From: Escherichia phage vB_EcoS_Sponge
Sequence record: NC_073081.1
Direction: 5' to 3' (one strand)
Length of the DNA stretch: 44,887 nt
The notes under the pieces are model-generated. The model did not search any database. It was given only the letters and a program-made list of their open reading frames with translations, and was not told the DNA's origin. The position numbers and the translations under genes were made by a program. Each line of letters begins with the position of its first letter. Positions within the stretch are counted from its first letter, which is position 1. This document shows, one piece after another, positions 15,709 to 34,193 of this stretch.

Positions 15709-16159
15709 GACCTGGATCTATCGCGTATAAAGGGACTTTATTGCCGGTTTTCATAACGCGCTGGACGCGCTTTGACTCCTCGGCGCTCATTGGGCGCATA
15801 TCAGTGCTATAACCACCGTTTGATGTGTGCCGCCACGCTATCAGCACCAGATCTTTCCGGTCGATCTTAGACTGGCGGCCCTTCGGTCGCACGTACGCCT
15901 CGGCCCGTTTGCAATGCTCGCGCAGACATTCGGCAGTGATGCGGTTTAGCGCGACGGTGGTTGTGTACCCAGTGCGCTGCATAATACCCATCAACTCATA
16001 CAGCAGTTCGAAGCGCTCCTCTAATTCCTTGCGCGCCTTCTCCTCGCCTTCATAGCTCGCCAGGTAGGTGTCCGCCAGCGCGTTCGCGCGTTCGGCCTGT
16101 TCGCGGGCTTCGAGGCATTGCGCGGCCCAGTAATTTTTCTCTTCTTGTAAAATTTTCAT
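15695..16159 (-). CDS. hypothetical protein
   Basis: 154-aa ORF, GGAG SD, overlaps Dam start by 14 nt; predicted coiled coil at N-terminus. Confidence 0.45.
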   Translation of the reverse strand: MKILQEEKNYWAAQCLEAREQAERANALADTYLASYEGEEKARKELEERFELLYELMGIMQRTGYTTTVALNRITAECLREHCKRAEAYVRPKGRQSKIDRKDLVLIAWRHTSNGGYSTDMRPMSAEESKRVQRVMKTGNKVPLYAIDPGHAEE

Positions 16160-16402
16160 TTATTTAATCTCCGTAGTGCGGATTTCCTTGCGAGGAATAA
16201 ATTTGCCGTCTTTCTCGACCCAGCAAGTTCCGTAACGCCATTGGGTATTACGACCTGTTTGCTCGGCATATACGGTCTTGCATTCGTAGCGTTCCGTGTA
16301 GTAAATAGCCGCGGTAGGTACGAAAATACAAACGGCAAACATGAGGGTGAGTATCACCCAAAATCGAAGGTCGCCGTCGTAGTCGAAAAATAATGATCTC
16401 AT
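16160..16402 (-). CDS. small membrane protein
   Basis: 80-aa ORF with one hydrophobic segment (WVILTLMFAVCIFVPTAAIYY); stop abuts next start. Confidence 0.4.
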   Translation of the reverse strand: MRSLFFDYDGDLRFWVILTLMFAVCIFVPTAAIYYTERYECKTVYAEQTGRNTQWRYGTCWVEKDGKFIPRKEIRTTEIK

Positions 16403-16483
16403 TGTGTCGTCTCCGGGTATTAAAAAGGGCGTCCAAACCGGACACCCTCAATATAATGCAACCAATATGATTATGCAACCAAT

Positions 16484-16807
16484 TTACGCATAAAAGTTCG
16501 GGTCGCGTGCAACGTCTACCAGGTAAAGGTTGCTTATGCGGTTGCCGTAGTGCCCTGGAGTGCGCTGGCGGCACACAACGGCGAAGCCTGGAGGGATTGT
16601 ATTGCCCGTCTCAATAATCCACGCCACGCGTGCGCCGGACAGCGTCTTGCCGTTGCATTCGATACGTGTTCCGCCATCGGCAGTGTTGATGTTGCCAATT
16701 TTGCAGCCGGTGGATTTCAGGCGAATTACGCCGGTTTTGCTGTCGTAGGTGAATAGCTGGTTAGTCATTGCGACCGAAAAGTCGATGGCTTCGAATGAAG
16801 TATTCAT
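16484..16807 (-). CDS. HNH-type endonuclease-like protein (possibly degenerate)
   Basis: N-terminal F.YDSKTG.I.LK and C-terminal GNRISNLYLV resemble HNH_3-type homing endonucleases; the canonical His is not evident. Confidence 0.4.
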   Translation of the reverse strand: MNTSFEAIDFSVAMTNQLFTYDSKTGVIRLKSTGCKIGNINTADGGTRIECNGKTLSGARVAWIIETGNTIPPGFAVVCRQRTPGHYGNRISNLYLVDVARDPNFYA

Positions 16808-17499
16808 TTTAAATTTTCCTCGTTAACCGCTATCGCGAAGCCGCGCGGAGTGAGCGACCGGATTAATTTTGTGCGGGCTGATTTGCCTCCGAGGCGACTA
16901 TACTGCTTCGAGTACCCTTTTTCAACGAAAACAGGTCTCTTCTCGGGCATACGGAAGCCGTTGCCGGTCCATAAGCAGGTCAGCTTCGGATATGAGTCGC
17001 GGGCGTTGATGTATTCAGGGAACAACGGATGTACGTCATCCTCCGGCAGATATCCCCCATACTCCCACGGGTCGAACGAGTGATCAGGCTTGCGCCACTG
17101 GGTGGAAAGCACACTGCGCGGATTCTCAATCATATATGGCACTTCGAAGAAGTCACCCAGGTAAGCGGCGATCTTCGCGGTGCGCACCGCCTTAAGCTGA
17201 AAGGCTGGGTCTTTTGCACGCTTGCGCGGGAAAGCTGGAGCGCCGCTCACCGCCAGATCCGTGCACGGAGGGAACGCATAGATGATATCTGGCGTACCAA
17301 AATCGCCATTCATCGCGCGGTCCACGAAGTCCAGATCGATAAACTCATTGCGATACCGGATTCCGCGACCATAGATACGATAGTCAAGGTAAGACCCGTG
17401 ATCGGCTTCGGAGTAGTTAAAGCAATAACACTTATGCCCCATCTCGGCAGCACGCTCAATCATCAAACCGCTGCCGTCAAACAATGACCAGATTATCAT
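16804..17499 (-). CDS. compact DNA (cytosine-5)-methyltransferase-like protein
   Basis: Motif I-like LFDGSG, motif IV-like Pro-Cys (AFPPCTDLAVSG), motif VI-like ENP, C-terminal GFAIAV; only 231 aa; ATGA overlap with helicase stop. Confidence 0.55.
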   Translation of the reverse strand: MIIWSLFDGSGLMIERAAEMGHKCYCFNYSEADHGSYLDYRIYGRGIRYRNEFIDLDFVDRAMNGDFGTPDIIYAFPPCTDLAVSGAPAFPRKRAKDPAFQLKAVRTAKIAAYLGDFFEVPYMIENPRSVLSTQWRKPDHSFDPWEYGGYLPEDDVHPLFPEYINARDSYPKLTCLWTGNGFRMPEKRPVFVEKGYSKQYSRLGGKSARTKLIRSLTPRGFAIAVNEENLK

Positions 17500-18920
17500 T
17501 TGCGCGCCTTTTTAGCTTTCATGTATTCCATCAAGTCGTCTTGAATATCTCGCTTGCTGTCGCGACGCTCGGCGACCAATTCGTCCAGTGTCCCGCGCGC
17601 CTGGATAATGTAGACGAATACCGGTCGAGGGTGTCCGGCCTGCATCTGGCGAACCGGCCCGATACGTTCAACGATCTGCGAAAAGTGCTCAAAGTTCCAG
17701 GTATCGGAGAAGATTGCCAGGTGATGTCCGCCGTCCTGCAAGTTAAGGCCGTGGCCTGCCGATGCCGGGTGTGCAAACATGATGGGGATCTCGCCCCTGT
17801 TCCACGCTTCCATATCCTTATTGCCCTGCTTACCCTTACCCAACGCGACGCCGTGCGGAAATTTCTTCTTAAGACGTGCCAGGTCATGCTTATACTGATA
17901 CGCAACGAGCAACGGCGCGCCGTTCAACTCCTCCACGATACTTTCCAGCGCGTCCAGCTTCGCGTCGTGAATCTTCACCCACTCGTCGGTCCGTTCGCCG
18001 TCTTCATCCACCTTATACACAGCGCCGGAAGCAAGCTGAAGGCACTTAATTGTCTTCGACGCAGCGTTCGCCGCTTCCACTGTTCCGCTTTCCAGTTCGG
18101 CAAATAGCTCGCTTTCAAACTGGTCGTAAATCTTGCGGGCTTTCTTCGGCAGATCCACAACAACCGGCGTATATATTGGCTTGTCACATCCGAAGTATTC
18201 AGCCGCGTCAACGGTGAGGGATACATCAGACAGGCGTTGTTGTATTTCTTTCTCGGAGTTCTTTAGCGGGGCGTGCTGCATAGTGAAGCTGCCAGGCTTA
18301 ACCGGCTTGCTAATGAACCAGCGATCGGTAAATGCCTTATAACTACTGCCGAGTCGTTCGCCACCGTCGACAAACCACGTCTGACCCCATAAGTCTTTCA
18401 GCCCGTTTGGCGCTGGTGTGCCGGTCAGATTAATCCAGCGCTTGACGTGCTTATGTGCGATCGCCGCCAGTGCGCGTGCGCGCTTACTACCCTGCTTACT
18501 GCGGTAGCCTTTCAGCTTAGTGGATTCATCGGCAACAACGACCGTAAAGGGCCACGCATCGCCGTAATAGTCAACCAGCCACTCAACCACATCGTAGTTA
18601 ACACAAACCACGTTAGCGTCGCTCTCAAGCGCTGCAATACGGTCCTTCTCCGGCCCGGTGCCGTCTACGACCAGCAGGGATGAGAACCGCCATTTCTCCT
18701 GTTCCGGGGGCCAGGTGCCGGATGCAACGCGCAGCGGGGCCAGCACCAGTACGCGGTCCTCCTGGTTCGACAGGATGCCAGTCTGGAACATTTTATTCAG
18801 CGCCCACATTGTCGCGCCGGTTTTACCGGATCCCATTGTCGCCCATATATTACATCGCTTATGCTTGAGGATGAACGCGGTTATCAACTTCTGATATTCG
18901 CGGCGTCGGAATCTTGCCAT
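17496..18920 (-). CDS. SNF2/DEAD-like superfamily 2 helicase
   Basis: Walker A MGSGKTG, DEXH-like VVADESTKLK, C-terminal helicase region; start ATG 18920 (track start 19010 overlaps upstream gene). Confidence 0.8.
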   Translation of the reverse strand: MARFRRREYQKLITAFILKHKRCNIWATMGSGKTGATMWALNKMFQTGILSNQEDRVLVLAPLRVASGTWPPEQEKWRFSSLLVVDGTGPEKDRIAALESDANVVCVNYDVVEWLVDYYGDAWPFTVVVADESTKLKGYRSKQGSKRARALAAIAHKHVKRWINLTGTPAPNGLKDLWGQTWFVDGGERLGSSYKAFTDRWFISKPVKPGSFTMQHAPLKNSEKEIQQRLSDVSLTVDAAEYFGCDKPIYTPVVVDLPKKARKIYDQFESELFAELESGTVEAANAASKTIKCLQLASGAVYKVDEDGERTDEWVKIHDAKLDALESIVEELNGAPLLVAYQYKHDLARLKKKFPHGVALGKGKQGNKDMEAWNRGEIPIMFAHPASAGHGLNLQDGGHHLAIFSDTWNFEHFSQIVERIGPVRQMQAGHPRPVFVYIIQARGTLDELVAERRDSKRDIQDDLMEYMKAKKARK

Positions 18921-18924
18921 GTCT

Positions 18925-19149
18925 TTATTCCGCCTTTTTCCAGACTTCAGTTTCACTACCCCAGTTCCTCTTTGTGGCGTCGTAGTTGGTGGCGTGTCCG
19001 ACGTGGACACCGGTAGCCCGGAAGCTCTTAAATTTTTGCCAGCACACCGTCAACGGCAGCGGATCATTCATGCCTGCGATAAACCATACGCGATCGCCTG
19101 GTTTGCATTCGCCCAGCTTGGTGAGTCGGTAATGTTCTTTCATCGTCAT
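18925..19149 (-). CDS. hypothetical protein
   Basis: 74 aa from ATG 19149 with GGGAG SD immediately after a terminator-like hairpin; longer track ORF (to 19356) overlaps the upstream gene. Confidence 0.4.
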   Translation of the reverse strand: MTMKEHYRLTKLGECKPGDRVWFIAGMNDPLPLTVCWQKFKSFRATGVHVGHATNYDATKRNWGSETEVWKKAE

Positions 19150-19156
19150 GTCTCCC

Positions 19157-19179
19157 AAAAATGGCGGGACAAGCCCGCC
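19157..19179 (-). terminator. intra-operon hairpin terminator/attenuator
   Basis: On the minus strand: ggcggg-cttgt-cccgcc followed by AUUUUU, directly followed by SD and start of the next gene. Confidence 0.5.
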
Positions 19180-19186
19180 ATATTGA

Positions 19187-19360
19187 TTATTCTTGTTCTG
19201 CACGATAGCGGCGCTGCCGTTCGCGCTCTTTCTTATTGCGGCACGATTTGCACTCGGCCCGATGCCCGTCCGGGCTGCGCGCAGTCTTACCGGTGTATTT
19301 GTGGAACTGGGACAGCGGCTTGATGCAGCCGCAATTACTACAACGTTTTTCTTCAATCAT
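19187..19360 (-). CDS. small Cys4 zinc-ribbon protein
   Basis: 57 aa from ATG 19360 (GAGGA SD); CxxC...CxxC pattern (CSNCGC ... CKSC); basic C-terminus. Confidence 0.4.
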   Translation of the reverse strand: MIEEKRCSNCGCIKPLSQFHKYTGKTARSPDGHRAECKSCRNKKERERQRRYRAEQE

Positions 19361-19400
19361 TTCTAAAATCCTCGATAGTGCCAACCTGCACACTATACCG

Positions 19401-19679
19401 CTACGCGACCAATTCAGCAACCAATAAATCGCAGTCGGCTATGTTGTCGATAACACGAACGTCCGCACCGCGGCGGGCCATTCGCTCATGTTCACGTACC
19501 TGGTGCGGCTTCGGTTTTCCTCCGGGGCGCTTCACTTCGACGAACACTATTTTGCCGTTGATGATAATAATCAGGTCGGGCGCACCCGCGCGCCCCTCCC
19601 ATGCCAGTTTTCGGCAGAATCCGCCAACATCTTTCACCCGTCTCATCAGGTGGCTTTGAATCTTGCCTTCTGGAGTCAT
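19401..19679 (-). CDS. VRR-NUC domain nuclease
   Basis: 92 aa; PD-(D/E)XK signature APDLIIII...VFVEVKRPGGKP typical of VRR-NUC; start ATG overlaps polymerase stop (TAATG). Confidence 0.6.
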   Translation of the reverse strand: MTPEGKIQSHLMRRVKDVGGFCRKLAWEGRAGAPDLIIIINGKIVFVEVKRPGGKPKPHQVREHERMARRGADVRVIDNIADCDLLVAELVA

Positions 19680-21970
19680 TACTTCCTGTACCTGTACATA
19701 ATGTCGCCTTCGGCGGCAAGGGGGAAGCCTTTCGCCCATATAGGCAGGTCGCACATCAGCGCGCAAAGCTCCTCGGTCGTGTAGTCGTCGGTGTCCGGCA
19801 CTTCGGTGATCAATTCATCATGCACCGATAGAACGATTTCATAGCCCGCAGCTTCAACGCCAGGCATGGACCATGCGAGAATATCGCGGCACAACGCCTG
19901 TACGATGTTCTCCGTCAGTTTGCCGCCGTAGGTGTACTGGAACCCCCACTGGCGCGTCGTCTGATTCTCGCCCTGATATTTAATGCGGGTGCTGGTGCGC
20001 TTCTTGCCGGTGTCTTCGTCAATCTCGGTCGTGACCGACAGCGCGATGCCGGGGTAACTCATGATGCGCCCCGACGGCAACTCAATTTTCAACCACCACC
20101 CCGCGGCGTTCGGGTCGTCGCGCTCCTCGTCAAAGGTTGGGTCGTGCTTCGCCTTCGTACGGACAATCTTGAGCGCTTTTCTACCGTCCGGGCGAACGGT
20201 AGCGCCAGCCCAGTATGCTTTGCCCGGATTGCGTATTGCACACAACACCGCGTCCTCAAGCTCGGCCCAAAAGGCTACCGTCTTCGGGTGCGCCTCTCGC
20301 CACATGCGTTTAATCGCATCACACGTAAGCCATACGTTTTTCGGCAGTATGTAAGTCGGGCGCTCGTCCTTCTTGCCCGGCTTCGGCGGTCGCTTCGCTT
20401 CGTTAATGCGGGCGTACTCATAACCCCGTTTAGCCGCTGCCCAAATGTGATCGGGGAATGTGCCCTTCATTACGTCCGCCATCGCGTAAAGGTCGAGGCC
20501 CAGGTTTTTAGCGAACTGCAAGAACGCCGCGACGCCGCCACCATAGCCCAGCCCCAATTCGCACGCCTTACCGATCTGGCGTAAGTCCTTGCGGTTAGCT
20601 TTAATGTAGTCCGGGTCCAGGCCGAACATCTTACCGGCAGTCTCACAATAGATATCGCGACCGGCCTTAAACACCATTAGCGCGGTTTTCTCGCCAGCGA
20701 TCCAGGCGAGGCCACGCCCTTCCACGTTGGAATAGTCCGCTACGACAAACTTCTTACCCTTAGCCGGAATGATGCACCCGCGAACGGTCGAGGCGGTCAG
20801 CTTAGATATGTCATACGCCCAGTGTGCGGTCCCGCGTAACAGGGAGTTGATGCCGTTGGTGAGCATGTGCGACCGGACCCAAAACGAGACGTCGCTCTCG
20901 CCTTCGCGGCGCTTAATCTTCCCTTCGTGGTCGTCGCTATACTCGCCGCGTGCCAGGTTTTGAGGCTGGAAGCCTTTACCGGCCCAGCGTAGCGTGCGCT
21001 TTGCACCACCATACTGAAGACACCCACGGCGTCTACCATCGGCAGACAGACCATTAACGAGCGGATTGTACTTAGTCGATGCCGTTGATGACGCGCCGAG
21101 GCGCATTTCGATAAGCGCTTTGCCTTCGTCGGGGAAGTCCGGGTCTTCAAGCAAGTCGTTAAGTGTGGATTTCTGCGCGTTGTGGATCGTGAACGCCGGG
21201 GCGATATCACGCAGGATTGGCAGGAAGTCATTGCCTGTCAGTTTACCGCCAAATCGCTCCCAGGCTTCTTCCTTCAATTCTTCCTTATGCGCCTGCACCG
21301 CTTTGATCGCGGCGTTCGCCAGTTCAACGTCCACATAGAAGCCGCGGTCGTTGATCAACTGGTCGATAAGCAGGATTTCATCTTCCTTCGGAGTATTACC
21401 CCAGTCCGGTATGCGCCAGTAGACTTCACGCATTGCGATAATATCCAGCGCGGCATAGCGCAGAAATTTGGCCCATTCTTCCGGGTGAGTCTCGCGGGTG
21501 TATCGGCGGATTTTGTAGGTCTTAGGGGTGGGCTTACAGAATCGTTTAATCAGCGCCTTGCCTGCCTTATCCTTCGCGTGCTCTGCGTCAACGCCCAGCA
21601 CCTGGCACTGCATATCGAGGCTACCGGGCAGCGCGTGGCGAAAGGCCATAATCATGGTGTCTTCGATCTGGCTTACCGGCAGGTCGATTCCCCACTTCTC
21701 ACGGATAACCAAGCGGTCAAACAGGAGGCCGTTAGCCATCACGATTTTTGCTTTCTTGCGGGATACCTGACGGAGCGCCTTGCGCAGTTCCCGCGGCATT
21801 GTTGGGGATTCAGTGGCATCCCATGTCTGCACGCGGCCCTCGTCGATGGCGTATGTGCAAATCATAATCTCGGTGGTTGGGTGCTCTGCGTAGGCGTACG
21901 CCCCTACTTTCTTCAGGTCAACCCCGCTGAATGTCTCGGTGTCGAGAAACAGGCGTTCGAAGTCTTTCAT
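19679..21970 (-). CDS. family A DNA polymerase with 3-prime-5-prime exonuclease domain
   Basis: Exo I LFLDTET; Pol A motif A VADYSNVEGRG, motif B RQIGKACELGLGYGGG, motif C SVHDELI; 763 aa. Confidence 0.9.
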   Translation of the reverse strand: MKDFERLFLDTETFSGVDLKKVGAYAYAEHPTTEIMICTYAIDEGRVQTWDATESPTMPRELRKALRQVSRKKAKIVMANGLLFDRLVIREKWGIDLPVSQIEDTMIMAFRHALPGSLDMQCQVLGVDAEHAKDKAGKALIKRFCKPTPKTYKIRRYTRETHPEEWAKFLRYAALDIIAMREVYWRIPDWGNTPKEDEILLIDQLINDRGFYVDVELANAAIKAVQAHKEELKEEAWERFGGKLTGNDFLPILRDIAPAFTIHNAQKSTLNDLLEDPDFPDEGKALIEMRLGASSTASTKYNPLVNGLSADGRRRGCLQYGGAKRTLRWAGKGFQPQNLARGEYSDDHEGKIKRREGESDVSFWVRSHMLTNGINSLLRGTAHWAYDISKLTASTVRGCIIPAKGKKFVVADYSNVEGRGLAWIAGEKTALMVFKAGRDIYCETAGKMFGLDPDYIKANRKDLRQIGKACELGLGYGGGVAAFLQFAKNLGLDLYAMADVMKGTFPDHIWAAAKRGYEYARINEAKRPPKPGKKDERPTYILPKNVWLTCDAIKRMWREAHPKTVAFWAELEDAVLCAIRNPGKAYWAGATVRPDGRKALKIVRTKAKHDPTFDEERDDPNAAGWWLKIELPSGRIMSYPGIALSVTTEIDEDTGKKRTSTRIKYQGENQTTRQWGFQYTYGGKLTENIVQALCRDILAWSMPGVEAAGYEIVLSVHDELITEVPDTDDYTTEELCALMCDLPIWAKGFPLAAEGDIMYRYRK

Positions 21971-22137
21971 TGCTTAATCCTCACTACGGCGTCGGCGCTG
22001 CCGATCATGGAGAAGATACCGTCGGAAAGGGTTATCTCCTCGCCGTTGTTGCGAATCTCGGCAACGGTGAAATATTCCCCCAGTAGCTTGGACCATACTC
22101 GCATTCCGACTTTTACTTCGCTGGCTTTAATGCGCAT
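21967..22137 (-). CDS. small hypothetical protein
   Basis: 56-aa ORF (MRIKASEVKVGMRVW...), AGGA SD, stop overlaps polymerase start (ATGA). Below the 60-aa track cut-off. Confidence 0.35.
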   Translation of the reverse strand: MRIKASEVKVGMRVWSKLLGEYFTVAEIRNNGEEITLSDGIFSMIGSADAVVRIKQ

Positions 22138-22196
22138 TTTTCATTGTCCTATTAAAAAAGCCCGCATTAAGCGGGCTTGAATAGTGGGCTTTGCCC

Positions 22197-22979
22197 TTAA
22201 CGGCGGCGACGTTTACGTGGTGCTTCGTCTTCGTCGTCGTCCTCATCTTCGTCATCGCGTGGCTTACGACGTTTACGAGGTTTCTCATCTTCATCTTCGT
22301 CGTCGTCATCGCGGCGCTTGGATTTTTTGGACTTGCGCGGCTTGTCGTCTTCGTCATCGTCATCACGACGTTTTGACTTTTTGGACTTGCGCGGGCTTTC
22401 ATCTTCGTCATCGTCGCCCAGGTCTTCGTCTGAGCAAGAAGACCCGCCACCGCCGAAGGCTTCGCCGTCATCGCGGAAGCGCAGACCCAAAAGACCAGCA
22501 CCGAGTCCCTTGCCGTTGGTATTGTTCCACGCCCAAATATCCAGGGACACATTGCAATAACAACCGGAGTAGATCTCCTGGCCTTCGATCTCGTCGCCTT
22601 CTACGGTCAGACCTTGTTCCGTCTGCTTCTCGCCGAGTGACGTTTGAATGATCGGCTGTTTGAACGATTTGGCGTTGATGTACAACATGCCTTCGAATTC
22701 TTCGGTTACTTCGTCGCGCTCGTCACCGTCGCGAACTGCGCATTCCTTAGAATCCTGGGCGTAGTGGCGGTCCATCCACTTATCAGCATTCTTCTCGGAT
22801 TTCAGCTTGTCGGTGAGCACTGCGCGCGCTGCCGCTTCCACTTTGTCCACCTGCGGATCTTCTTTATCAAGGAGAATCACTGCACGGTATGCCGGTTTTT
22901 GTCCATCCTGTTTAGGGGTATCACGTTCCCAAATTTTAAGGAAACATACGCGCACATTTTTCAGGTTGACTTTAGCCAT
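22197..22979 (-). CDS. DUF2815-like single-strand DNA-binding protein with charged low-complexity C-terminal tail
   Basis: N-terminus MAKVNLKNVRVCF typical of DUF2815; ATG 22979 with GAGGA SD; C-terminal DDDDED/PRKSKKSKRR repeats encoded by a tandem ~54-bp DNA repeat (about 22325-22420). Confidence 0.55.
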   Translation of the reverse strand: MAKVNLKNVRVCFLKIWERDTPKQDGQKPAYRAVILLDKEDPQVDKVEAAARAVLTDKLKSEKNADKWMDRHYAQDSKECAVRDGDERDEVTEEFEGMLYINAKSFKQPIIQTSLGEKQTEQGLTVEGDEIEGQEIYSGCYCNVSLDIWAWNNTNGKGLGAGLLGLRFRDDGEAFGGGGSSCSDEDLGDDDEDESPRKSKKSKRRDDDDEDDKPRKSKKSKRRDDDDEDEDEKPRKRRKPRDDEDEDDDEDEAPRKRRRR

Positions 22980-23069
22980 TTTCCAATTCCTCATTTTCAC
23001 ATGTATCGGGGTTATTATGAGCCACCCCGTTCGGCTTGGTTGCTAATCTACTTGGTTGCGCCTAAGCGG

Positions 23070-23312
23070 TCAAGCACTTTTATTAAAAAGATTTCTGGTC
23101 ACGTAGTTGGTAGCGTTCTCGACCCAGCTTAACGGCGGTCGGTCGATGTTCTTCTCCACCCAGTCGACGGCAGCGTCACTATATCCGTCGTCAAGCCAGC
23201 GGGTCGGATGGCGAATCATCCAGGCTACCATTAACACGCCTTGCACGCAATGCAGGATAAAGCCCAGCGCGCCGAGCAAAAACATCAATAAGATCGCAAA
23301 TACTTTATTCAT
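23070..23312 (-). CDS. small membrane protein
   Basis: 80-aa ORF with two hydrophobic segments; overlaps exonuclease stop. Confidence 0.4.
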   Translation of the reverse strand: MNKVFAILLMFLLGALGFILHCVQGVLMVAWMIRHPTRWLDDGYSDAAVDWVEKNIDRPPLSWVENATNYVTRNLFNKSA

Positions 23313-24735
23313 TGCTTAAGTCCTCGTCAGTAGCTTCCGACCACGCAGGGCGCGGGTCGTCGATCGGTGCTAACACCGGTTTGGCGGGTGCGCGCGTGAT
23401 TTTAGCACACAGCTTCGCCCACACTTTCGGTTTTTCGTCCTTCAGTACCTTCTCGGCATCGGTCGGGCTGAGCAATGTTTCTTTGTACATCACATCGCGC
23501 TTGATCCGGGCCTTCGTGAAGATTTCAATCACTTCGCTCTCGTCCGCCCACTTACGGATCCCTTCCTTACCGGCAACCATCTTGAGGCCCAGCGATTCGC
23601 CATCGCCCGCCATGACCGCCTTGAATACCGCGGACTCGATAGCCTTGATGTGCTGGCGCATCGCATCAAGGCCTTCATAAGCCTTGCGCAGTTCCGCCGC
23701 GCTCATAGCGCCGGGGGCCGCTTCTTTCTTACCACGCTTCGCACGTCGGGCCGCCTTCCGGGCTTCGCGGGCCATATTGCGGTCGTGATTGGCGCATTCT
23801 TCCTCGGTCGCCACGCTCACGTCGTCGCCCAGGTCTTCGTCGGTTGCCGTTGGCGGTGTCATCGTGTCGATTGCGGCCTTCGCCCGGACGCTGCACTGGT
23901 CCGCAAATCTGCACCACTGGCACGCATCAACGCTGGGCCGGAAGTCTGCGCGGGTGAGTCCCTTCTTGCCTCGGGAATACGCCTCCAGTGCGGCAATAGC
24001 GCGCTTGGATGCAAACTTCGCGAATATCTCCAGCGCTTCTACCGAAATATCCCACTCCGACGCCCCGCCGCAATACGGCTGGAAGATAACCAGGCGAACG
24101 GTCGTAATGTCGTACATAGTTTGCAGCTTGCGTAGCAGGCCGAGCGCGTACAACATAAGCTGTTTGTTTTCTTTCGCCTCGACCTTATGCCGCCCAGTCT
24201 TCAGGTCGCCAACAATCAGCATGTACGTGCCGTCGGTCTTCTTCATTACCATGACCATATCGGCAGTACCGAACGTTTTAATCCTGTTGCCGTCGATCTC
24301 GAAGCCTGAATGAAGGACGCGGGTCAGGTCGGCGCGCATCTCAAGCTGAACAAACTCCGCCACTTCAAGGAGCGGTCGCCAGTGGTCGATGTATGCATCG
24401 CACTGTTTCACCATATCGTCGTTGACCAGTACGCCGCCTTTCGGTGCTTTTGGGTGGGCCTTTACCGGTCCCTTGCCTTCGTTCTCGACGTAACATCCTT
24501 TATACGTCTTCGCAGTTATTTTCTTCTCACCGGCGATAATGCGGTTTAGCACGACTTCAGATACGGTGTGCATACTCGTACCGTTAATCGCGGCTTGCCC
24601 GGATTCGTTCGGGATATCTTTTTCGACCACCAGGGCGGCAGGGCAACCCATCCATTTTTTAGCACCGGATGGTCCGAGTAATGAATGTTCCGTATTGCTA
24701 CCGGATTGCGTTTTACGTTTTGGTTTAATCGCCAT
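23305..24735 (-). CDS. Cas4/RecB-like PD-(D/E)XK exonuclease (DUF2800-like)
   Basis: GDLKTG, QLMLYALGL (QxxxY) and Cys cluster CQWCRFADQC characteristic of RecB-family/Cas4-like nucleases; 476 aa. Confidence 0.65.
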   Translation of the reverse strand: MAIKPKRKTQSGSNTEHSLLGPSGAKKWMGCPAALVVEKDIPNESGQAAINGTSMHTVSEVVLNRIIAGEKKITAKTYKGCYVENEGKGPVKAHPKAPKGGVLVNDDMVKQCDAYIDHWRPLLEVAEFVQLEMRADLTRVLHSGFEIDGNRIKTFGTADMVMVMKKTDGTYMLIVGDLKTGRHKVEAKENKQLMLYALGLLRKLQTMYDITTVRLVIFQPYCGGASEWDISVEALEIFAKFASKRAIAALEAYSRGKKGLTRADFRPSVDACQWCRFADQCSVRAKAAIDTMTPPTATDEDLGDDVSVATEEECANHDRNMAREARKAARRAKRGKKEAAPGAMSAAELRKAYEGLDAMRQHIKAIESAVFKAVMAGDGESLGLKMVAGKEGIRKWADESEVIEIFTKARIKRDVMYKETLLSPTDAEKVLKDEKPKVWAKLCAKITRAPAKPVLAPIDDPRPAWSEATDEDLSNE

Positions 24736-24923
24736 TATTCCACCCTTGAAAACTGAGCTATATAATAATCGTGTTTAACATTTGCCTTCTTCGCTGCTTC
24801 GTTCATGGTTGAAGCAAGTTCGCTGGCTTGCGTCCAGCAGCTAACCCAGTTCTGATTCATAACGATTTCGGGTTGCTCATCGCCGGTAATACGGCAGCGA
24901 AATAAAACAAAGAATGTAGCCAT
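24735..24923 (-). CDS. hypothetical small protein
   Basis: 62-aa ORF, GGGAG SD, stop overlaps exonuclease start. Confidence 0.35.
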   Translation of the reverse strand: MATFFVLFRCRITGDEQPEIVMNQNWVSCWTQASELASTMNEAAKKANVKHDYYIAQFSRVE

Positions 24924-25175
24924 TTATTTTGTCTCCCAGCGGTCAATTGTTTTTGCTTCTGATGCAACGGCGAATCGAACATATTCCAGGTTGGAATCCG
25001 CCCAAATATAAAAGTCGGGATTAGTAAAGGTGGTGCGCTTAATTTGCGCGGGGGTGTTGCGGCGTTTATCAATTACGGCAACGCGCGATTGAAAGCTGCC
25101 GATGCGTTCGAATAGCCAATAATATGGGCGCTGGTCGCGGGAATCCACCGCCTCGATTAGCGTGAAGCGTGCCAT
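24924..25175 (-). CDS. hypothetical protein
   Basis: 83-aa ORF; GAGGA SD placed directly after a terminator hairpin. Confidence 0.4.
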   Translation of the reverse strand: MARFTLIEAVDSRDQRPYYWLFERIGSFQSRVAVIDKRRNTPAQIKRTTFTNPDFYIWADSNLEYVRFAVASEAKTIDRWETK

Positions 25176-25188
25176 TGTCTCGTCCTCT

Positions 25189-25215
25189 AAAAATAGGCCC
25201 GCAGATTAGCGGGCC
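25189..25215 (-). terminator. intra-operon hairpin terminator/attenuator
   Basis: Minus strand: ggcccgc-taatct-gcgggcc followed by UAUUUUU, then SD and ATG of next gene. Confidence 0.5.
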
Positions 25216-25223
25216 GGATAATA

Positions 25224-25349
25224 TTAATCTTCACCGCCGAGTTGTATATAAACCTCGTCCGGGTCGTCGCCTCTTTCTTCGCAGAAGGCGGTGAATGCCG
25301 CCCAATTTTCCGCTATGAAATCGAGCATGATTCTCATTTCATAGTCCAT
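25224..25349 (-). CDS. hypothetical small protein (41 aa)
   Basis: ATG 25349 to TAA 25224 (MDYEMRIMLDFIAENWAAFTAFCEERGDDPDEVYIQLGGED); not in the ORF track (under 60 aa). Confidence 0.25.
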   Translation of the reverse strand: MDYEMRIMLDFIAENWAAFTAFCEERGDDPDEVYIQLGGED

Positions 25350-25353
25350 GATA

Positions 25354-25866
25354 TTAATCTTCCAGTTCGAAATAAGTTTCGACGATTTCTTTTAGCTCTT
25401 TGTGGAAGTCTTCGACGTCGTCATCTTCCAGCTTAGCGATTGATTTGATCTCGAACGATTCCAGCAGGTCGTCGAATTCGTCGTTCGCATCGTCGTCGTC
25501 ACCACCGGCAATAATCGCGGCATACTGTTTGATCTCGTCGCGCATCTCTGCCAGCGGATCGGCATCTTTCTTGCCTTTGCCTTTTGCCGGTGCTTTTTTA
25601 GACTTAGCCGGTTTTTCGTCTTCGGCATCGTCGTCATCTTCTACGACTTCTTTTTTAGCCTTACCTTTCGCCGGTGCTTTTTTAGATTTAGCCGGTTTTT
25701 CGTCTTCAGCTTCATCGTCGTCATCTTCGACAACTTCTTTTTTGGCCTTAGACGGCTTCTTATCTTCCTGTTTACCAACGGCAGCGCCAACGGCTTCATA
25801 ATGCTTTGCAATGGTTTCCAGTGCTACTACTCCGCGAGTGATCAGGTTTACGATTTGCTCAAACAT
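25354..25866 (-). CDS. first leftward early gene: acidic/lysine-rich tandem-repeat protein
   Basis: ATG 25866 with GGAGAT SD; 29-aa unit KKEVVEDDDDEAEDEKPAKSKKAPAKGKA repeated twice (87-bp DNA repeat about 25571-25744); strongly acidic C-terminus. Confidence 0.55.
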   Translation of the reverse strand: MFEQIVNLITRGVVALETIAKHYEAVGAAVGKQEDKKPSKAKKEVVEDDDDEAEDEKPAKSKKAPAKGKAKKEVVEDDDDAEDEKPAKSKKAPAKGKGKKDADPLAEMRDEIKQYAAIIAGGDDDDANDEFDDLLESFEIKSIAKLEDDDVEDFHKELKEIVETYFELED

Positions 25867-26089
25867 GGTATATCTCCGATTGGTTAAGTTTAGGTGTCGG
25901 CAGTTAACTTCGTCGGTGGCCTTAACATATTGCCAGGTTACGCGTTCTCCCGTTCGGGTAGTGGACCTGGTTATATAATCACGGTTGGGAATCCTGACAC
26001 TTCGATCCGGCCCCTGCGTTGCCCCTCTCCAGTTTGCGTCCTGCATCCTGTCTCTCCAGTTTGCGATAGATTGGTTGTCGACGGAGTGA

Positions 26090-26294: not shown

Positions 26295-26624
26295 ATGAAT
26301 ATCAAAGAAGCAATTGAAGTGTTATCTAATGCAATCCGCGGCGAAGCGGGTAAATCCTGGTATTACACAAATGCGGTGGATACTCTGTTATTTGAAGTGT
26401 CCAGATTATCGCGTGCTGAGAAGGAGCTTACCGCGAAGCTGGAATTGCTCAACGGCACGGCAGCAAGCAAGCTGCAAAAACACAATGAAGAAATGGAAGA
26501 ATACAAAAAACAGGTTATCCGTCTACGTGAGGAAGGTAAATCCTGGGCGATGATTGCCGAGTTGACCGGAATTAATCAGAGCACAGTGCGCTCCTGGGTA
26601 CGCAATAATAAAACTTCTAAGTAA
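26295..26624 (+). CDS. early helix-turn-helix DNA-binding protein
   Basis: 109-aa ORF, AGGAG SD; C-terminal HTH-like segment KSWAMIAELTGINQSTVRSWV; coiled-coil N-terminus. Confidence 0.5.
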   Translation: MNIKEAIEVLSNAIRGEAGKSWYYTNAVDTLLFEVSRLSRAEKELTAKLELLNGTAASKLQKHNEEMEEYKKQVIRLREEGKSWAMIAELTGINQSTVRSWVRNNKTSK

Positions 26625-29009: not shown

Positions 29010-29060
29010 GTGTAGTGTAAATATATTGAATAGTTATGCAGATTTCGTGCATAAACCAAA

Positions 29061-29161
29061 CGGGACAGAAAGCGGGACAAACACGAGGCGGGACAAAGCG
29101 GGACAGCACTCCAGTCCCGCCCCGGATGGCGCGGCTTCCGGAGGAGCGGGACAGCGGGACA
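29061..29161. repeat. iteron cluster B: 5 exact GCGGGACA octamers (29072, 29088, 29098, 29146, 29154) plus partial/inverted copies
   Basis: Read directly; preceded by a TGCATAAA box at 29048-29055; lies in a ~535-bp non-coding region after the primase-helicase gene. Confidence 0.8.
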
Positions 29162-29165
29162 GCAC

Positions 29166-29221: not shown

Positions 29222-29433
29222 AATCCGGAGATTGCAAAATACACGGCAGCATGATGCGAAGTGCGGCCGACGACGAACTAGGCAACCAATGCAGGTTGTA
29301 TTATGCTGAGTGAAAAATGCGGTTTGCAGTCACAGCAGATAGCGATCAACTTTTTCATGCGCGTGATTAATATTGGTTGCACCCACCCAGGCACCCTGCT
29401 ATATTGGTTGCACACCAACATGAGGACAGAACA

Positions 29434-29760
29434 ATGAAAGCGATTATCTGGAATTACGCAATGGCGATGGCGAAGGCACAAGAAGCGGCGGAGTTCGCCG
29501 GTGAAGGAGCGGAAGCGGTCGAAAGACTATCGGCAGCGTGGTCCGTTGTTCGCGTCACGCAGCAGGCCATCGCCTGTATGCTGGAGCGCCGCTTCGACAC
29601 GATGGCGGAGATCCAGCCGTTGGCGAACGCAATCCAGGACTACGCGCTTGCATTTGCCCGTGAGCGCCTGGCGTATCGCTTCGGGGTCGGTGAGACGGCA
29701 GCGACAAACATCGCCCGGATTAAAGCCCAGCGCGAACTATTCGCCCAGCTTGCGAAATAA
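29434..29760 (+). CDS. hypothetical protein
   Basis: 108 aa from ATG 29434 (GAGGA SD); track start 29377 is TTG inside the repeat region. Confidence 0.45.
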   Translation: MKAIIWNYAMAMAKAQEAAEFAGEGAEAVERLSAAWSVVRVTQQAIACMLERRFDTMAEIQPLANAIQDYALAFARERLAYRFGVGETAATNIARIKAQRELFAQLAK

Positions 29761-29769
29761 GGGGCCAAA

Positions 29770-30039
29770 ATGGACCGCAGACGAGCTAAACAGCTTTCGT
29801 GGCATATTCCACTGCATTGCATACGAATATTGGCTAAGAATGCGATTGAGGGTGATTCTGTGTTCTGGAGCTATCGCGACGATGTGAAGCCACTAACGCA
29901 GACTCGCTATCTGCACCAGTTCGCCAGGGAGCACGGATTCGCCGTCAAAACATCCTTGCAACCAATTGGCATCCGTATTACATTACGCCGGAAGCCCGCC
30001 GTTGAGCGGGTAGGCAAACACTGGAGACTGAGCAAATGA
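29770..30039 (+). CDS. hypothetical protein
   Basis: 89-aa ORF; contains an internal GCAACCAAT copy (29958-29966). Confidence 0.4.
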   Translation: MDRRRAKQLSWHIPLHCIRILAKNAIEGDSVFWSYRDDVKPLTQTRYLHQFAREHGFAVKTSLQPIGIRITLRRKPAVERVGKHWRLSK

Positions 30040-30179
30040 CACCAGCACTAATGGCGGGATTCTCGCAGAAGTTTATTTCTGTTGATGCCTGCATAGCAGA
30101 TTATGAGATGGACGGCATCGCTACTGTATGCGATGGCGACACGAAAACTGCCGATGAGATTGAGGAGACAGAGCAATGA
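30036..30179 (+). CDS. hypothetical small protein (47 aa)
   Basis: ATGA-coupled to flanking genes on both sides; acidic; under track cut-off. Confidence 0.3.
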   Translation: MTPALMAGFSQKFISVDACIADYEMDGIATVCDGDTKTADEIEETEQ

Positions 30180-30733
30180 AATTACTATTCCGCCGCAAAT
30201 CGGACGGGCGCATTCTTAAGCCGATACAGACCCTGGACGCATACGTGCGCCTACAACAACCGGCAAACAAAAAAGTATTCCGCGCGCCAACAAGCACGCT
30301 GCCGCAGTTCTTCACGGTACACGCCCACGATATCGAGCGCGGAGATGTGCTGCGTGATATTCGCGACGGCAGTATGTGGATCGTCGAGTATGTCGGGCTT
30401 CATGGCCTGCGTATGCAATCCCGCAAGGATGGCGTAGCCGGTATGACTTACTTCGGCCTCGTAAATTACGAGCGAGTGGGTCGCAAATACTGCCTTCGTG
30501 ACCGCCAGCCGCATGAGCGCGTTGAGTTCCGCAAGTCACAGCCAGCCTACGCAACCTACGACTCCCACCAGGTGCAGGCGAGGATGAAACGCGCCGCGCA
30601 CGAAATCGTCAATCGCTTTGATGCCGTGACGAATGCGCAACGCCATGCGCAGGAATACGGCGTCGGATTCATCCGGGTGGAACAAGACGGCAGCATGAAA
30701 GCCATCGACCCGCGCTCGGTGATTCTGAAATGA
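30176..30733 (+). CDS. hypothetical protein
   Basis: 185-aa ORF, translationally coupled (ATGA) at both ends. Confidence 0.45.
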   Translation: MKLLFRRKSDGRILKPIQTLDAYVRLQQPANKKVFRAPTSTLPQFFTVHAHDIERGDVLRDIRDGSMWIVEYVGLHGLRMQSRKDGVAGMTYFGLVNYERVGRKYCLRDRQPHERVEFRKSQPAYATYDSHQVQARMKRAAHEIVNRFDAVTNAQRHAQEYGVGFIRVEQDGSMKAIDPRSVILK

Positions 30734-30876
30734 GCGCGTCTATCCGTGATATGCTGATGCATAACCGCTTTGAGGTAGGCGGTCGGGTATTTCGCAATTA
30801 CTTCGTGGCGCGTGCATGGGCGCGCCATATTGGCAAACCGGAAGGGGCAATTCGATGTTATACGTCTTCGCGGTAG
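30730..30876 (+). CDS. hypothetical small protein (48 aa)
   Basis: ATG 30730 overlapping upstream stop; basic protein. Confidence 0.3.
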   Translation: MSASIRDMLMHNRFEVGGRVFRNYFVARAWARHIGKPEGAIRCYTSSR

Positions 30877-30956
30877 TATGTGGCGGTAGTCTGGCGGCCC
30901 TGGTGCTGTTGGCGTCGGTTATTAGTCTGGTTAAATACCTATGGGGCAGATTATGA
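30855..30956 (+). CDS. small hydrophobic membrane peptide (33 aa)
   Basis: MLYVFAVVCGGSLAALVLLASVISLVKYLWGRL; GAAGGGG SD; overlaps neighbours. Confidence 0.25.
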   Translation: MLYVFAVVCGGSLAALVLLASVISLVKYLWGRL

Positions 30957-31240
30957 TTCATGATGTGATTTATTGGTTTGGTTTGATCTGCGGGCTGTGC
31001 CTGCTTACCGCGGTGCTGGTGGGCGTCCTGATGTTCGTAGTATGGCCCGCCGTGGAGGCCGCCAGCATTACCCGCATGACGTTCGAGATCTACAAGCGCC
31101 GTGGAATAACGGAGCACCCGACCAGGCTTCGTATGTGGTGGCTATGGTACCGGGATATGATAGGCGGTCGAACATTCGAAGCCGTCAGATCGGGAGGATG
31201 GGAGTGGAAAGGCGTCGGCAAGTGGTCCATTTTCGATTAA
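30953..31240 (+). CDS. membrane protein (2 predicted TM segments)
   Basis: 95 aa from ATG 30953; hydrophobic segments WFGLICGLCLLTAVLVGVLMFVVW. Confidence 0.4.
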   Translation: MIHDVIYWFGLICGLCLLTAVLVGVLMFVVWPAVEAASITRMTFEIYKRRGITEHPTRLRMWWLWYRDMIGGRTFEAVRSGGWEWKGVGKWSIFD

Positions 31241-31257
31241 TTATGCAAGCGTGATAT

Positions 31258-31292
31258 AGTCCCAGTGAGATAAAACTTACTGGGACTTTTTT
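31258..31292 (+). terminator. strong hairpin + T6 immediately upstream of holin start codon
   Basis: Stem agtcccagt/actgggact (31258-66 / 31279-87), 12-nt loop, T-run to 31292; ATG at 31293 with no SD. Confidence 0.55.
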
Positions 31293-31583
31293 ATGGATAA
31301 GCTAAACGAGTGGTTATTCGCCCTTGCGTGTCTTGCTGGCGGCTTCGTAGGCGCACGCATTCATGGCGAGGCAACGAAAGGGCCGTTGAACTTCGTTTTA
31401 TATGTCGTAGTTGGCTTCCTGTGTGCCATATTTGGCGCACCGGCTATTGCCGAGTGGGCTGGTTTGTCGGGGGAGCGCACTGTCGCCGGTTTGGGCTTCG
31501 TAACCGCAATCTTCTGGATGCCAATCGCCGACCGGATCAGGGAGACTATTGCGTCGTTCCGACTTCCGGGGGGTGCAAAATGA
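31293..31583 (+). CDS. holin-like membrane protein (3 predicted TM segments)
   Basis: 96 aa, three hydrophobic segments and charged C-terminus; directly upstream of endolysin. Confidence 0.55.
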   Translation: MDKLNEWLFALACLAGGFVGARIHGEATKGPLNFVLYVVVGFLCAIFGAPAIAEWAGLSGERTVAGLGFVTAIFWMPIADRIRETIASFRLPGGAK

Positions 31584-31825
31584 TTATCTCCGTCCTGTTG
31601 TTTGTTATCATCGGGGCTTCGTCCCTGTTTAACGTGTATGCGCCGTCCGTCCGGGATGGCATTTTCGGTCGGGTGCTGTATCTGTTAACGGCAATGGTCT
31701 GTATTATCGGATTGCTGCAAACAGGCGACGTATCGGATACCACCTGGACCGCGTTAATCTGGCTGTTTGCATTGCGCACCCTGCGTAATGCTGTTTTGAA
31801 TGGGGTAAAACATGCGATTCAGTGA
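31580..31825 (+). CDS. second holin/antiholin-like membrane protein
   Basis: 81 aa, ATGA-coupled to the holin gene; hydrophobic segments; overlaps endolysin start. Confidence 0.45.
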   Translation: MIISVLLFVIIGASSLFNVYAPSVRDGIFGRVLYLLTAMVCIIGLLQTGDVSDTTWTALIWLFALRTLRNAVLNGVKHAIQ

Positions 31826-32303
31826 CAACGGTCTACGATTTACGGCAGCATGGGAGGCTTTCAGCCCGGTGCCGTATTTCGCGACCAAGAAAGAGCAGGC
31901 CCGCGGCCTGTACACCTGGGGCTATGGTCACACCGGAACTAACCCGCCACGAAGCATTACCCGTGCAGAAGCGCTGGAACTGCTCAAGCGAGATGTGGCG
32001 TATGCCGAGGACTGGGTGAACAAATACGCACATCCGAGCATTAACCAGGCGCAATTCGACGCGCTGGTGGACCTGGTAATCAATGCCGGTCCTGGTCCGA
32101 TCGTACCGGATGACGTCGCGAATGATTTCGATGATGCGGTGCGACTGGGCGACTGGGCGAAGGTACGAGCTACTCTGCCGCAGTTCCGCAAGCAAGGTGG
32201 CGAAGTGCTTAAGGGTCTGGTGCGCCGTGCAATCGGCAGGCAAGCGCTATTCGATGGTAAGCAGTGGGACGTTGCCGAGCGAATCGGGCGTAACGCAGCA
32301 TAA
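31812..32303 (+). CDS. endolysin, GH24 phage lysozyme family
   Basis: Conserved pattern NGL..L...EAF....Y....GLYTWGYGHTG and NQAQFDALVDLVINAG with C-terminal RRAIGRQALF, as in P22/T4-type lysozymes. Confidence 0.8.
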   Translation: MRFSDNGLRFTAAWEAFSPVPYFATKKEQARGLYTWGYGHTGTNPPRSITRAEALELLKRDVAYAEDWVNKYAHPSINQAQFDALVDLVINAGPGPIVPDDVANDFDDAVRLGDWAKVRATLPQFRKQGGEVLKGLVRRAIGRQALFDGKQWDVAERIGRNAA

Positions 32304-32319
32304 TACGAGGTAACACAGT

Positions 32320-32487
32320 ATGTTAAAAAGCATTCTTGATCATAACGCTGACGCGCTCGCCGCGCTGGCTAAAACCGAAGACCCTGGCGCACGCGCTATC
32401 ATCGCGGACTCTATCAACCACGCTGGGGTCTTCGATGCGAAGCTGCCAAGCCCGCCACCGCCGGAAGAACCCGGCCCCGCAGCGTAA
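32320..32487 (+). CDS. hypothetical small protein (55 aa)
   Basis: ATG 32320 to TAA 32485-32487; Pro-rich C-terminus; followed by terminator; under track cut-off. Confidence 0.3.
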   Translation: MLKSILDHNADALAALAKTEDPGARAIIADSINHAGVFDAKLPSPPPPEEPGPAA

Positions 32488-32494
32488 ACAATCA

Positions 32495-32518
32495 AGCCCG
32501 GATAATACCGGGCTTTTT
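32495..32518 (+). terminator. intrinsic terminator after lysis cassette
   Basis: agcccgg-ataata-ccgggct followed by TTTTT. Confidence 0.7.
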
Positions 32519-32582
32519 ATTGCTTGACTCGCAACCAACATAGACGCCATACTGCAACCAACCAATGAGAGGAGTAATCAAG

Positions 32583-32663
32583 ATGGCACGTAAAGATATT
32601 TGGGTATTAGCGATCTGGACCACCGCGGCTTTTATCGGTATGGTTATTTGCGAATTGCTATAA
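32583..32663 (+). CDS. 26-aa hydrophobic peptide
   Basis: MARKDIWVLAIWTTAAFIGMVICELL; strong SD AGGAG 8 nt upstream; two GCAACCAA motif copies just upstream. Confidence 0.35.
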   Translation: MARKDIWVLAIWTTAAFIGMVICELL

Positions 32664-32724
32664 CCCGCCGCAATATGGACCGTGGTATATTGTCCTCGGT
32701 CCCATAATCAGGAAGTGGATTAAT

Positions 32725-34076: not shown

Positions 34077-34094
34077 ACCGCATAGCCTGCCGAT

Positions 34095-34123
34095 TTGGTG
34101 GGCTTTTTTGTGCCTGTTATAAT
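34095..34123 (+). promoter_or_regulatory. putative extended -10 promoter upstream of terminase genes
   Basis: TGtTATAAT (34115-34123) with TTGgtg 17 bp upstream (34095-34100). Confidence 0.3.
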
Positions 34124-34193
34124 CCCACTTAGATGGCAGGGCCGTCTCCTATGTTGCCGATGGTCGGCGCATATGAACAAAAGGGCTTATATT

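Follow-up and report, generated by a model that had tools for sequence, protein, structure and literature searches.

The window analysed here, the whole 44,887-nt stretch of DNA from Escherichia phage vB_EcoS_Sponge (NC_073081.1), belongs to a Dhillonvirus (HK578-like E. coli siphophage); its region 30100–32400 matched 155 phage records at 80–94% identity, nearly all of them Escherichia phages of the genus Dhillonvirus, including TH13, jat and Oekolampad/Bas18. Replication and modification functions are encoded on the − strand (13347–26046). From 26295 onwards the + strand carries a helicase gene and a set of small genes, followed by the lysis genes, an exonuclease gene and then the terminase, head and tail genes. 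The lysis cassette (31293–32487) is flanked by terminators at 31258–31292 and 32494–32520, the second of which is also annotated as a terminator in phage PTXU06. The first gene of the cassette (31293–31583, + strand, 96 aa) had no match in Pfam or NCBIfam and belongs to PHROG 2359 'holin' (E = 8.5e-32); relatives annotate it as holin. It encodes a small membrane protein of a PHROG family labelled holin, with an endolysin gene adjacent, and by family and neighbourhood its product is most probably a holin. That neighbourhood comprises a second holin-like gene (31580–31825, + strand, 81 aa; PHROG 2508 'holin', E = 1.9e-27), which has its own Shine-Dalgarno (SD) sequence, GGGGGGTG, with an energy of −10.7 kcal/mol, and an endolysin gene (31812–32303, + strand, 163 aa; Pfam PF00959 Phage_lysozyme, E = 6.4e-21). 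The final gene of the cassette is a 55-aa ORF (32320–32487, + strand) of the function-less family PHROG 11068. No spanin genes were found among ten further ORFs of the window; HK578-like phages are assigned to the Jersey spanin family in the literature.

The cassette is preceded by an operon (29434–31240) whose last gene (30953–31240, + strand, 95–99 aa) belongs to PHROG 2531 and has an N-terminal hydrophobic segment. Two of the ORFs in this part are hydrophobic, one of 33 aa at 30855–30956 and one of 95–99 aa at 30941/30953–31240, and not three, as an earlier note on this DNA had counted at 30855–31240; a 48-aa ORF at 30730–30876 is not hydrophobic. The upstream membrane ORFs have either no PHROG or one whose function is unknown. 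They are deleted in phages Teewinot and Pubbukkers, which retain everything from about 31205 on, and the deletion in Pubbukkers is bounded by short GGCGTCGG repeats. No counterpart of these ORFs was found before the holin-proximal module described below in K1ind1 (Kagunavirus) or S100 (Jerseyvirus). Their position before the terminator and their loss in Teewinot and Pubbukkers, with the module kept, argue against the part in lysis control that had been proposed for them; they appear to be dispensable, and although they may have some role, nothing links them to lysis control.

Eighteen nucleotides past the TAA stop codon of the co-directional 99-aa gene begins an RNA hairpin with the sequence AGTCCCAGTGAG-ATAAAA-CTTACTGGGACT (31258–31287, + strand). 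Its 5′ arm (31258–31269) and 3′ arm (31276–31287) enclose a 6-nt loop (31270–31275) and form 12 pairs, six of them G-C and one G·U, with a computed energy of −19.8 kcal/mol for the hairpin by itself. The 96-nt stretch around it folds at −33 kcal/mol, compared with −17.6 ± 3.2 kcal/mol for shuffled sequences (z = −4.8; 0/200 shuffles were as good), and in a consensus scan the segment 31258–31292 ranked first among the terminator-like sites in 26–36 kb. A T6 tract (31287–31292, + strand), present as T6–T7 in every Dhillonvirus locus, would complete an intrinsic terminator for upstream transcripts, and the holin ATG (31293–31295) follows with zero bases between. Judged by its sequence, the holin-proximal hairpin with its T6 is a canonical intrinsic terminator, and in PTXU06 (NC_073064) the site carries an ARNOLD annotation as a putative terminator. 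The sequence, the fold statistics and the scan rank all confirm the terminator-like hairpin abutting the holin ATG that the earlier note had pointed out. The stem and the T6 that it described are real, with the amendment that its nine base pairs are the perfect lower part of a full stem of 12; the abutment also stands, with the T6 ending at 31292 and the ATG opening at 31293. The minimum-energy fold also shows a long-range pairing of GCAAGCG with codons 9–12 of the holin gene, which was given no weight, since the LM40P1 lineage has a wholly different sequence at these codons. The sole Rfam match at the site was the cyanobacterial sRNA NsiR1 (RF02399; E = 0.018, its 28.1 bits falling below the gathering score of 39), presumably due to the terminator-like hairpin; we regard it as a chance match and rejected it as the identity of the hairpin.

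These features could describe a plain operon-end terminator that abuts the holin gene by an accident of compaction and does no more than close the upstream operon and stabilise its 3′ end. The holin would then be translated independently of an SD, for instance by way of a U-rich leader that binds ribosomal protein S1, or the hairpin would be a processing site that frees the ribosome site. The canonical anatomy and the annotation in NC_073064, which is simply that of a terminator, favour such a reading; RNase III substrates typically have a longer stem than these 12 bp, which speaks against the processing site. Further evidence on this reading comes from the start codon and from conservation within and beyond the genus.

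Because an in-frame stop codon (TGA, 31266–31268) lies upstream and the next possible start is Met76, the ATG at 31293 is the sole start for a full-length holin. Holin homologues with 25–71% identity have the same aligned start, M-D-(K/L/D), and in other genera the codon at this position is TTG or GTG besides ATG. The ORF geometry and the conserved N-termini together rule out a wrongly annotated start, one of the two explanations that the earlier note had offered for the abutment. The holin N-terminus (MDKLNEWLF) has a single Met, with the next at residue 76, and contains no dual-start motif of the lambda S type. The only SD-like bases are a weak GGGA (31282–31285, + strand) 7 nt before the ATG, which sits in the 3′ arm of the hairpin, where it pairs with TCCC (31260–31263). 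Pairing of this GGGA with the 3′ end of 16S rRNA is worth −3.9 kcal/mol and ranks 37 of the 44 starts scored in the genome. The holin gene is therefore weakly endowed with an SD rather than lacking one, as had been stated, and the sequence in question lies inside the 3′ arm.

Conservation within the genus was profiled over 25 loci with 23 distinct sequences. Within 30941–31680, no stretch is better conserved than the 52-nt spacer that precedes the holin gene; identity to the window is 0.95–0.99 per 20 nt across 31221–31300, versus 0.6–0.9 in the flanking genes, and variation in the stem-loop falls mainly in the loop. The divergent LM40P1 lineage, which has 68% identity over the region and a different holin N-terminus (MEVFHKLDEW), still carries TGATATAGT / AATTATGCAGTCGTGATATAGT, the hairpin, the T6 and the abutting ATG; its hairpin differs by a C insertion in the 5′ arm and an A-to-G substitution in the 3′ arm. 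The 20 nt that precede the stem are under as much constraint as the stem. On this sequence comparison, terminator function by itself does not account for the conserved 20 nt, and the plain-terminator reading leaves them unexplained.

The conserved segment contains an extended −10-like element, TGaTATAGT (31252–31260, + strand), made up of a TG at 31252–31253 and the hexamer TATAGT at 31255–31260; it overlaps the hairpin 5′ arm, sharing its final three bases with the start of that arm. The hexamer matches the consensus at 5/6 positions, including −11A and −7T, and the TG occupies −15/−14. TGaTATAGT is identical in all 24 Dhillonvirus loci, the divergent LM40P1 lineage included. From the −10 geometry, transcription is predicted to start at the G at 31267 (+ strand), 7 nt after the hexamer and at the top of the 5′ arm; across all lineages the predicted start falls at the end or top of the 5′ arm or in the loop, and the base there is a purine in most lineages and T in two. 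An alignment of 11 representatives (35 nt upstream to 20 nt downstream; 55 columns) has as its only invariant bases TGnTAnnnTCC. The TGnTAnnnT corresponds to −15T, −14G, −12T, −11A and −7T, and the remaining invariant CC belongs to the anti-SD; since the lineages of the four genera are related by descent, the conservation of the five bases does not amount to four independent observations. All of a, c, g and t were found across lineages at the base between the TG and the hexamer.

Extended −10 promoters need TG at −15/−14, −12T, −11A and −7T, and tolerate a poor −35 region. The −35 region is poor in every lineage, with 2/6 matches here (TTCGAT) and 3–4/6 at best elsewhere. A consensus promoter scan did not call the site at 31252, and it called no + strand promoter-like site in 30733–31251 either. 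TGaTATAGT is thus a candidate sigma70 extended −10 promoter, with the critical positions kept, the non-contacted base drifting and no recognisable −35 element.

The position of the predicted start bears directly on access to the holin ribosome site. Opening this site (−18 to +12) was computed to cost 19.7 kcal/mol in an RNA begun 120 nt upstream versus 2.7 kcal/mol in an RNA begun at 31267, and in six other lineages 14–23 kcal/mol with the full hairpin versus 6–10 kcal/mol from the predicted start. The short leader starting at 31267 is no more structured than shuffled sequences (z = +1.2). In the modelled read-through RNA the SD would be paired away in the hairpin, as in translational masking of the T4 gene e type.

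The locus was then compared with those of holin homologues traced by exhaustive protein search. A homologous module precedes a homologous holin gene in Kagunavirus, Jerseyvirus and Cornellvirus-type phages. In Kagunavirus (28 IMG/VR contigs and K1ind1) it reads cgTG[g/c]TATCCTCCAG-(about 22 nt)-CTGGAGGAttcatcTTG, and in Jerseyvirus (S100 and 10 contigs) aaaTG[c/t]TAATCTCCGAA-(loop)-TTCGGAGATTTTTTattGTG, a canonical terminator ending 3 nt before the start codon. In Cornellvirus-type Salmonella phages (four contigs and Shemara) it reads TG[a/c/t]TAAYCTCCGTA-(loop)-TACGGAGtcctc.caccgATG, with TACGGAGtcc on the 3′ side. The SD equivalents in the 3′ arms of these three groups are GGAGGA, GGAGA or GGAG, and in Shemara the holin ribosome-binding site annotated by the depositors is the GGAG of the 3′ arm. 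The T-run is confined to Dhillonvirus and Jerseyvirus, whereas the SD lies in the 3′ arm in all lineages. What the lineages share is, on this comparison, an SD-burying hairpin, the putative terminator function being found in two genera only. The genes upstream of the module are unrelated among Dhillonvirus, K1ind1 and S100, and the module therefore belongs to the holin cassette.

The stem varies between genera by compensatory double changes at pair positions 7, 8, 12, 13 and 14; position 8, for example, changes from G-C to C-G, and position 12 is C-G, A-T or G-C, while single changes give G·U. For counting these pairs, the sequences were registered on the invariant T-C-C in the 5′ arm and on the A-G-G with which it pairs, MAFFT having put the 3′ arms of the genera out of register. 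Because a G·U pair corresponds to an A-C mismatch on the other strand, the helix acts in the sense-strand RNA and not as a protein-binding DNA palindrome. The structure-controlled initiation that had been raised for the holin is supported, the only SD-like bases sitting in a 3′ arm whose arrangement is conserved with covariation across four genera. Among more distant holin homologues, those of Pantoea phages MED16 and LIET2 are preceded at 45–60 nt by an ordinary terminator, with a separate SD, an arrangement that agrees with the plain-terminator reading; LIET2 also has a perfect TATAAT between its terminator and SD. No obvious element was found before the holin gene of Pectobacterium phage Arno18, also a distant homologue, and the locus of an intermediate homologue, P0005 (54% identity), was not found in viral, metagenome and genome collections. 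In the lineages without a T-run, where the hairpin cannot be a terminator, hairpin and SD persist with a leader that is not U-rich, and with the constraint upstream of the stem this makes a plain terminator in the Dhillonvirus spacer very improbable.

The −10 motif recurs elsewhere in the genome. Six copies of TGNTATANT are present, against 2.8 ± 1.6 expected, and 8/100 shuffled genomes reach six; the total count is thus not significantly above chance, and only the placement of the copies is striking. Five of the six are intergenic in a genome that is ~85% coding, both the coding figure and the intergenic test using an approximate gene map. Four lie ahead of + strand gene starts: 29 nt before 29434, 33 nt before 31293 (holin), 34 nt before 32725 (exonuclease) and 80 nt before 34203 (terminase small subunit). 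These sites are conserved across the genus, the divergent lineage included. The first of these, TGcTATATT (29397–29405, + strand), is an extended −10-like element before the upstream operon 29434–31240, whose transcripts would enter the hairpin. The last forms a sister junction (34084–34123, + strand) ahead of the terminase and structural genes, in which a terminator (34084–34110) is followed by TGtTATAAT (34115–34123). A 13-nt sequence, TGNTATARTCCCA, occurs in exactly two copies, one before the holin gene and one before the terminase genes just past the terminator at 34084–34110, and both copies are conserved. A TCCCA discriminator common to the putative holin and terminase promoters was considered and rejected as a general requirement, the LM40P1 lineage having TGATATAATcaaga at the terminase site. 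A further junction of a terminator and a promoter-like sequence lies at 32494–32553.

The succession of three good terminators on the + strand could be taken to indicate regulated antitermination, in which a phage protein or RNA factor would permit late read-through at the holin terminator and also at 32494 and 34084, much as Q does at lambda tR′. The gene order, with lysis, terminase, head and tail genes on one strand, resembles that of the lambda late region. We consider such a control highly unlikely. No neighbour resembling Q, N or another antiterminator was detected in Pfam, PHROGs, NCBIfam or a PDB sequence search, which is weak evidence with most neighbours belonging to function-less families. 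Between a promoter and the holin terminator there is also no space for a promoter-proximal engagement site. All three terminators come with an overlapping or following promoter-like element, which would make antitermination unnecessary, and the holin SD would still be masked in the read-through RNA.

We favour a model, which we judge probable though well short of certain, in which the spacer before the holin gene combines a terminator, a mask for the ribosome site and an embedded promoter for the lysis mRNA. We infer promoter activity, start site, termination efficiency, translational effect and timing in this model from the anatomy, conservation, covariation, −10 placement and computed folding energies observed at the locus. 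Transcripts of the upstream operon, from the promoter-like site at 29397, would fold the 12-bp hairpin followed by U6, and most polymerases would stop at ~31291–31295; any read-through RNA would retain the hairpin with the GGGA buried, and the holin would not be translated from it. Host sigma70 polymerase acting at the extended −10 promoter (31252–31260) would start a second RNA at ~31267. Such an RNA would be without the 5′ arm and would thus form no terminator, leaving a 26-nt unstructured leader with the SD free. A transcript started upstream of the hairpin would still form the terminator; one started inside the hairpin would escape it. The holin, the second holin, the endolysin and the 55-aa ORF would constitute their own transcription unit ending at 32494–32520; because terminators bracket the cassette, it needs a promoter of its own. 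Published promoter, terminator and transcript mapping for Dhillonvirus, Kagunavirus and Jerseyvirus consists, in the literature searched, of software predictions only, and no paper there describes the element for Dhillonvirus or Guernseyvirinae.

The lysis genes had previously been suggested to depend on read-through, which is probably not their main route, given the invariant extended −10 that overlaps the 5′ arm and the recurrence of the motif at three other + strand starts. The strongest form of that suggestion has no internal promoter at all: the hairpin would mask the SD, and the resulting low holin translation would act as a long lysis clock, comparable to lambda S. Several observations agree with it. 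The stem that takes up the SD in its 3′ arm is conserved and covaries; in Kagunavirus and Cornellvirus, which are without the T-run, a full-length read-through RNA must exist; the weak TTG and GTG starts of relatives and the weak SD here fit selection for low holin output; and in lambda S an upstream stem-loop controls access to the SD. The difficulty is that read-through alone leaves unexplained both the invariant TGnTA...T and the occurrence of the motif 29–80 nt before three other + strand starts. An opening cost of 19.7 kcal/mol combined with a strong terminator would, moreover, nearly silence the holin, and the second holin and the endolysin, being on the same transcript, would be starved of mRNA. 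We therefore regard exclusive read-through as unlikely.

A holin synthesised too early kills the host ahead of progeny production, so lysis genes must stay silent while upstream genes are transcribed. Nothing found in the sequence accounts for late timing of the holin, since a constitutive sigma70 promoter would act from the start of infection. An extension of the embedded-promoter model would have the element sort transcripts by source and set lysis timing, as a clock shared by Dhillonvirus and Guernseyvirinae; we put this forward as a speculation that is quite unlikely to be right as a whole. The + strand units after the early region would all use −35-independent extended −10 promoters (29397, 31252, 32683 and 34115), and early read-in would both terminate at the embedded holin promoter and occlude it. 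Holin synthesis might then begin once upstream transcription wanes, or once a phage factor shifts polymerase to −35-independent promoters.

If the embedded-promoter model is true, ~45 nt suffice to terminate transcription, mask a ribosome site and initiate transcription in widespread siphophages of E. coli and Salmonella, many of which belong to therapy and biocontrol collections. The poor or absent holin ribosome sites of their annotations would be explained, and the element would offer a small natural part combining insulator and promoter. The T4 gene e principle would extend to host-sigma70 promoters and to holins. For annotation, a terminator that abuts a start codon should not be taken as evidence for a wrong start.

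Two lambda systems share single features with the holin-proximal element. In lambda pR′-tR′, about 200 nt separate the promoter from tR′ downstream of it; transcription covers the whole terminator, and polymerase needs Q to get past. The two have in common an intrinsic terminator between upstream genes and a holin gene heading a late region, but here there is no room for such a layout and no Q-like protein was found. At lambda S, a stem-loop just upstream of the holin start includes SD bases and tunes both initiation and lysis timing. The lambda stem-loop divides initiation between the Met1 and Met3 starts of holin and antiholin, however, whereas the holin of the window (MDKLNEW) has a single Met; the lambda stem is also short, with no terminator and no promoter.

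The closest parallel is T4 gene e (and likewise soc, 49 and I-TevI), in which an inhibitory hairpin covers the initiation region and a late promoter lies in its 5′ strand (PMC3014915, citing McPheeters et al. 1986). In both cases a lysis gene follows earlier-expressed genes, and in long transcripts a helix sequesters the SD or AUG. Both also have, in the DNA of the 5′ strand, a promoter (here a putative one) consisting of a −10 element only, from which short transcripts are, or would be, translated, and in both the arrangement is conserved among relatives. The promoters differ, that of the phages studied here being a predicted host sigma70 extended −10 (TGnTATAnT) and that of T4 a gp55-dependent late TATAAATA. 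The controlled gene here encodes a holin and in T4 an endolysin, the helix of Dhillonvirus and Jerseyvirus appears to double as a U-tract intrinsic terminator, and the present case is known from sequence alone. A 2026 preprint deals with coupled or overlapping promoters and terminators in bacteria (bioRxiv 10.64898/2026.08.19.745784); the likeness is that termination and initiation signals share one short stretch of DNA, and the difference is that at the holin site the two would be interleaved, with the −10 before the hairpin and the start within it, and would also mask a ribosome site. The logic of the holin element thus appears to be that already known from T4 gene e, and its fusion with an intrinsic terminator is, by comparison among these systems, apparently new.

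Upstream of the holin element, the spacer before the holin ATG at 31293 that carries a -10-like site, a hairpin and a T6 tract, lie small genes for hydrophobic membrane proteins. These genes are absent from the Dhillonvirus relatives Teewinot and Pubbukkers (loci L018 and L019), which shows that they are dispensable. The deletion junction in Pubbukkers falls at short direct repeats, GGCGTCGG, located at 30908 and 31211 in the window.

The 9-mer ATTGGTTGC is present in 15 exact copies and 12 further copies with one mismatch, compared with an expectation of 12.3 ± 3.6 for the window at one mismatch or fewer. Its copies cluster in non-coding stretches and were located at 26070, 26097, 28911, 28965, 29000, 29282, 29372, 29403 and 29958, within 32531–32566, and at 16458/16475, 19405/19417, 39985/39999 and 14542/14553. 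They flank or overlap promoter-like sites in the divergent early region, at the extended -10-like site 29397 and at TTGACT-18-CATACT (32524). No copy was found near the holin element, the nearest being those at 29958 and 32531. ATTGGTTGC looks like an operator or iteron to which a DNA-binding protein of the phage would bind. The 530-nt non-coding stretch 3' of the helicase gene contains tandem GCGGGACA(G/A) repeats (29055–29165), a possible sign of a replication origin.

The + strand block opens with a gene (26295–26624) whose 109-aa product bears a weak resemblance, below threshold, to helix-turn-helix and sigma-70 region 4 domains, including a match to TIGR02937 that is below the cutoff (E = 1.7e-4); this product is a candidate regulator of transcription in the phage. 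The sequence TGTTATAGT at 15179–15187, a sixth TGNTATANT site, is on the + strand in a gap within the - strand gene block and may be an antisense or orphan promoter.

The extended -10-like site TGgTATATT at 32683, before the exonuclease gene, is conserved across Dhillonvirus. It is enclosed in the window by the inverted repeat GGACCG ... CGGTCC (32672–32705), the counterpart of which in Oekolampad (Bas18) is GACCGTGG ... CCACGGTC. The interval that separates the lysis-cassette terminator from the exonuclease gene holds an unannotated-looking 26-aa hydrophobic ORF, MARKDIWVLAIWTTAAFIGMVICELL (32583–32663), which has a good SD (GAGGAG, -8.6 kcal/mol) and gave no match in a PHROG search. A small hairpin, GATGGC-AGG-GCCGTC (34132–34146), is located just 3' of the terminase promoter-like site TGtTATAAT, and the divergent LM40P1 lineage (L021, about 6000) has GGTGG-TTGGG-CCACC in its place at an identical position. 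The changes between the two hairpins are compensatory, which points to conservation of a structure in the 5' leader.

The scanned ORFs of the window yielded no spanin-family matches; the literature assigns HK578-like phages to a family of overlapped two-component spanins, the Jersey family.
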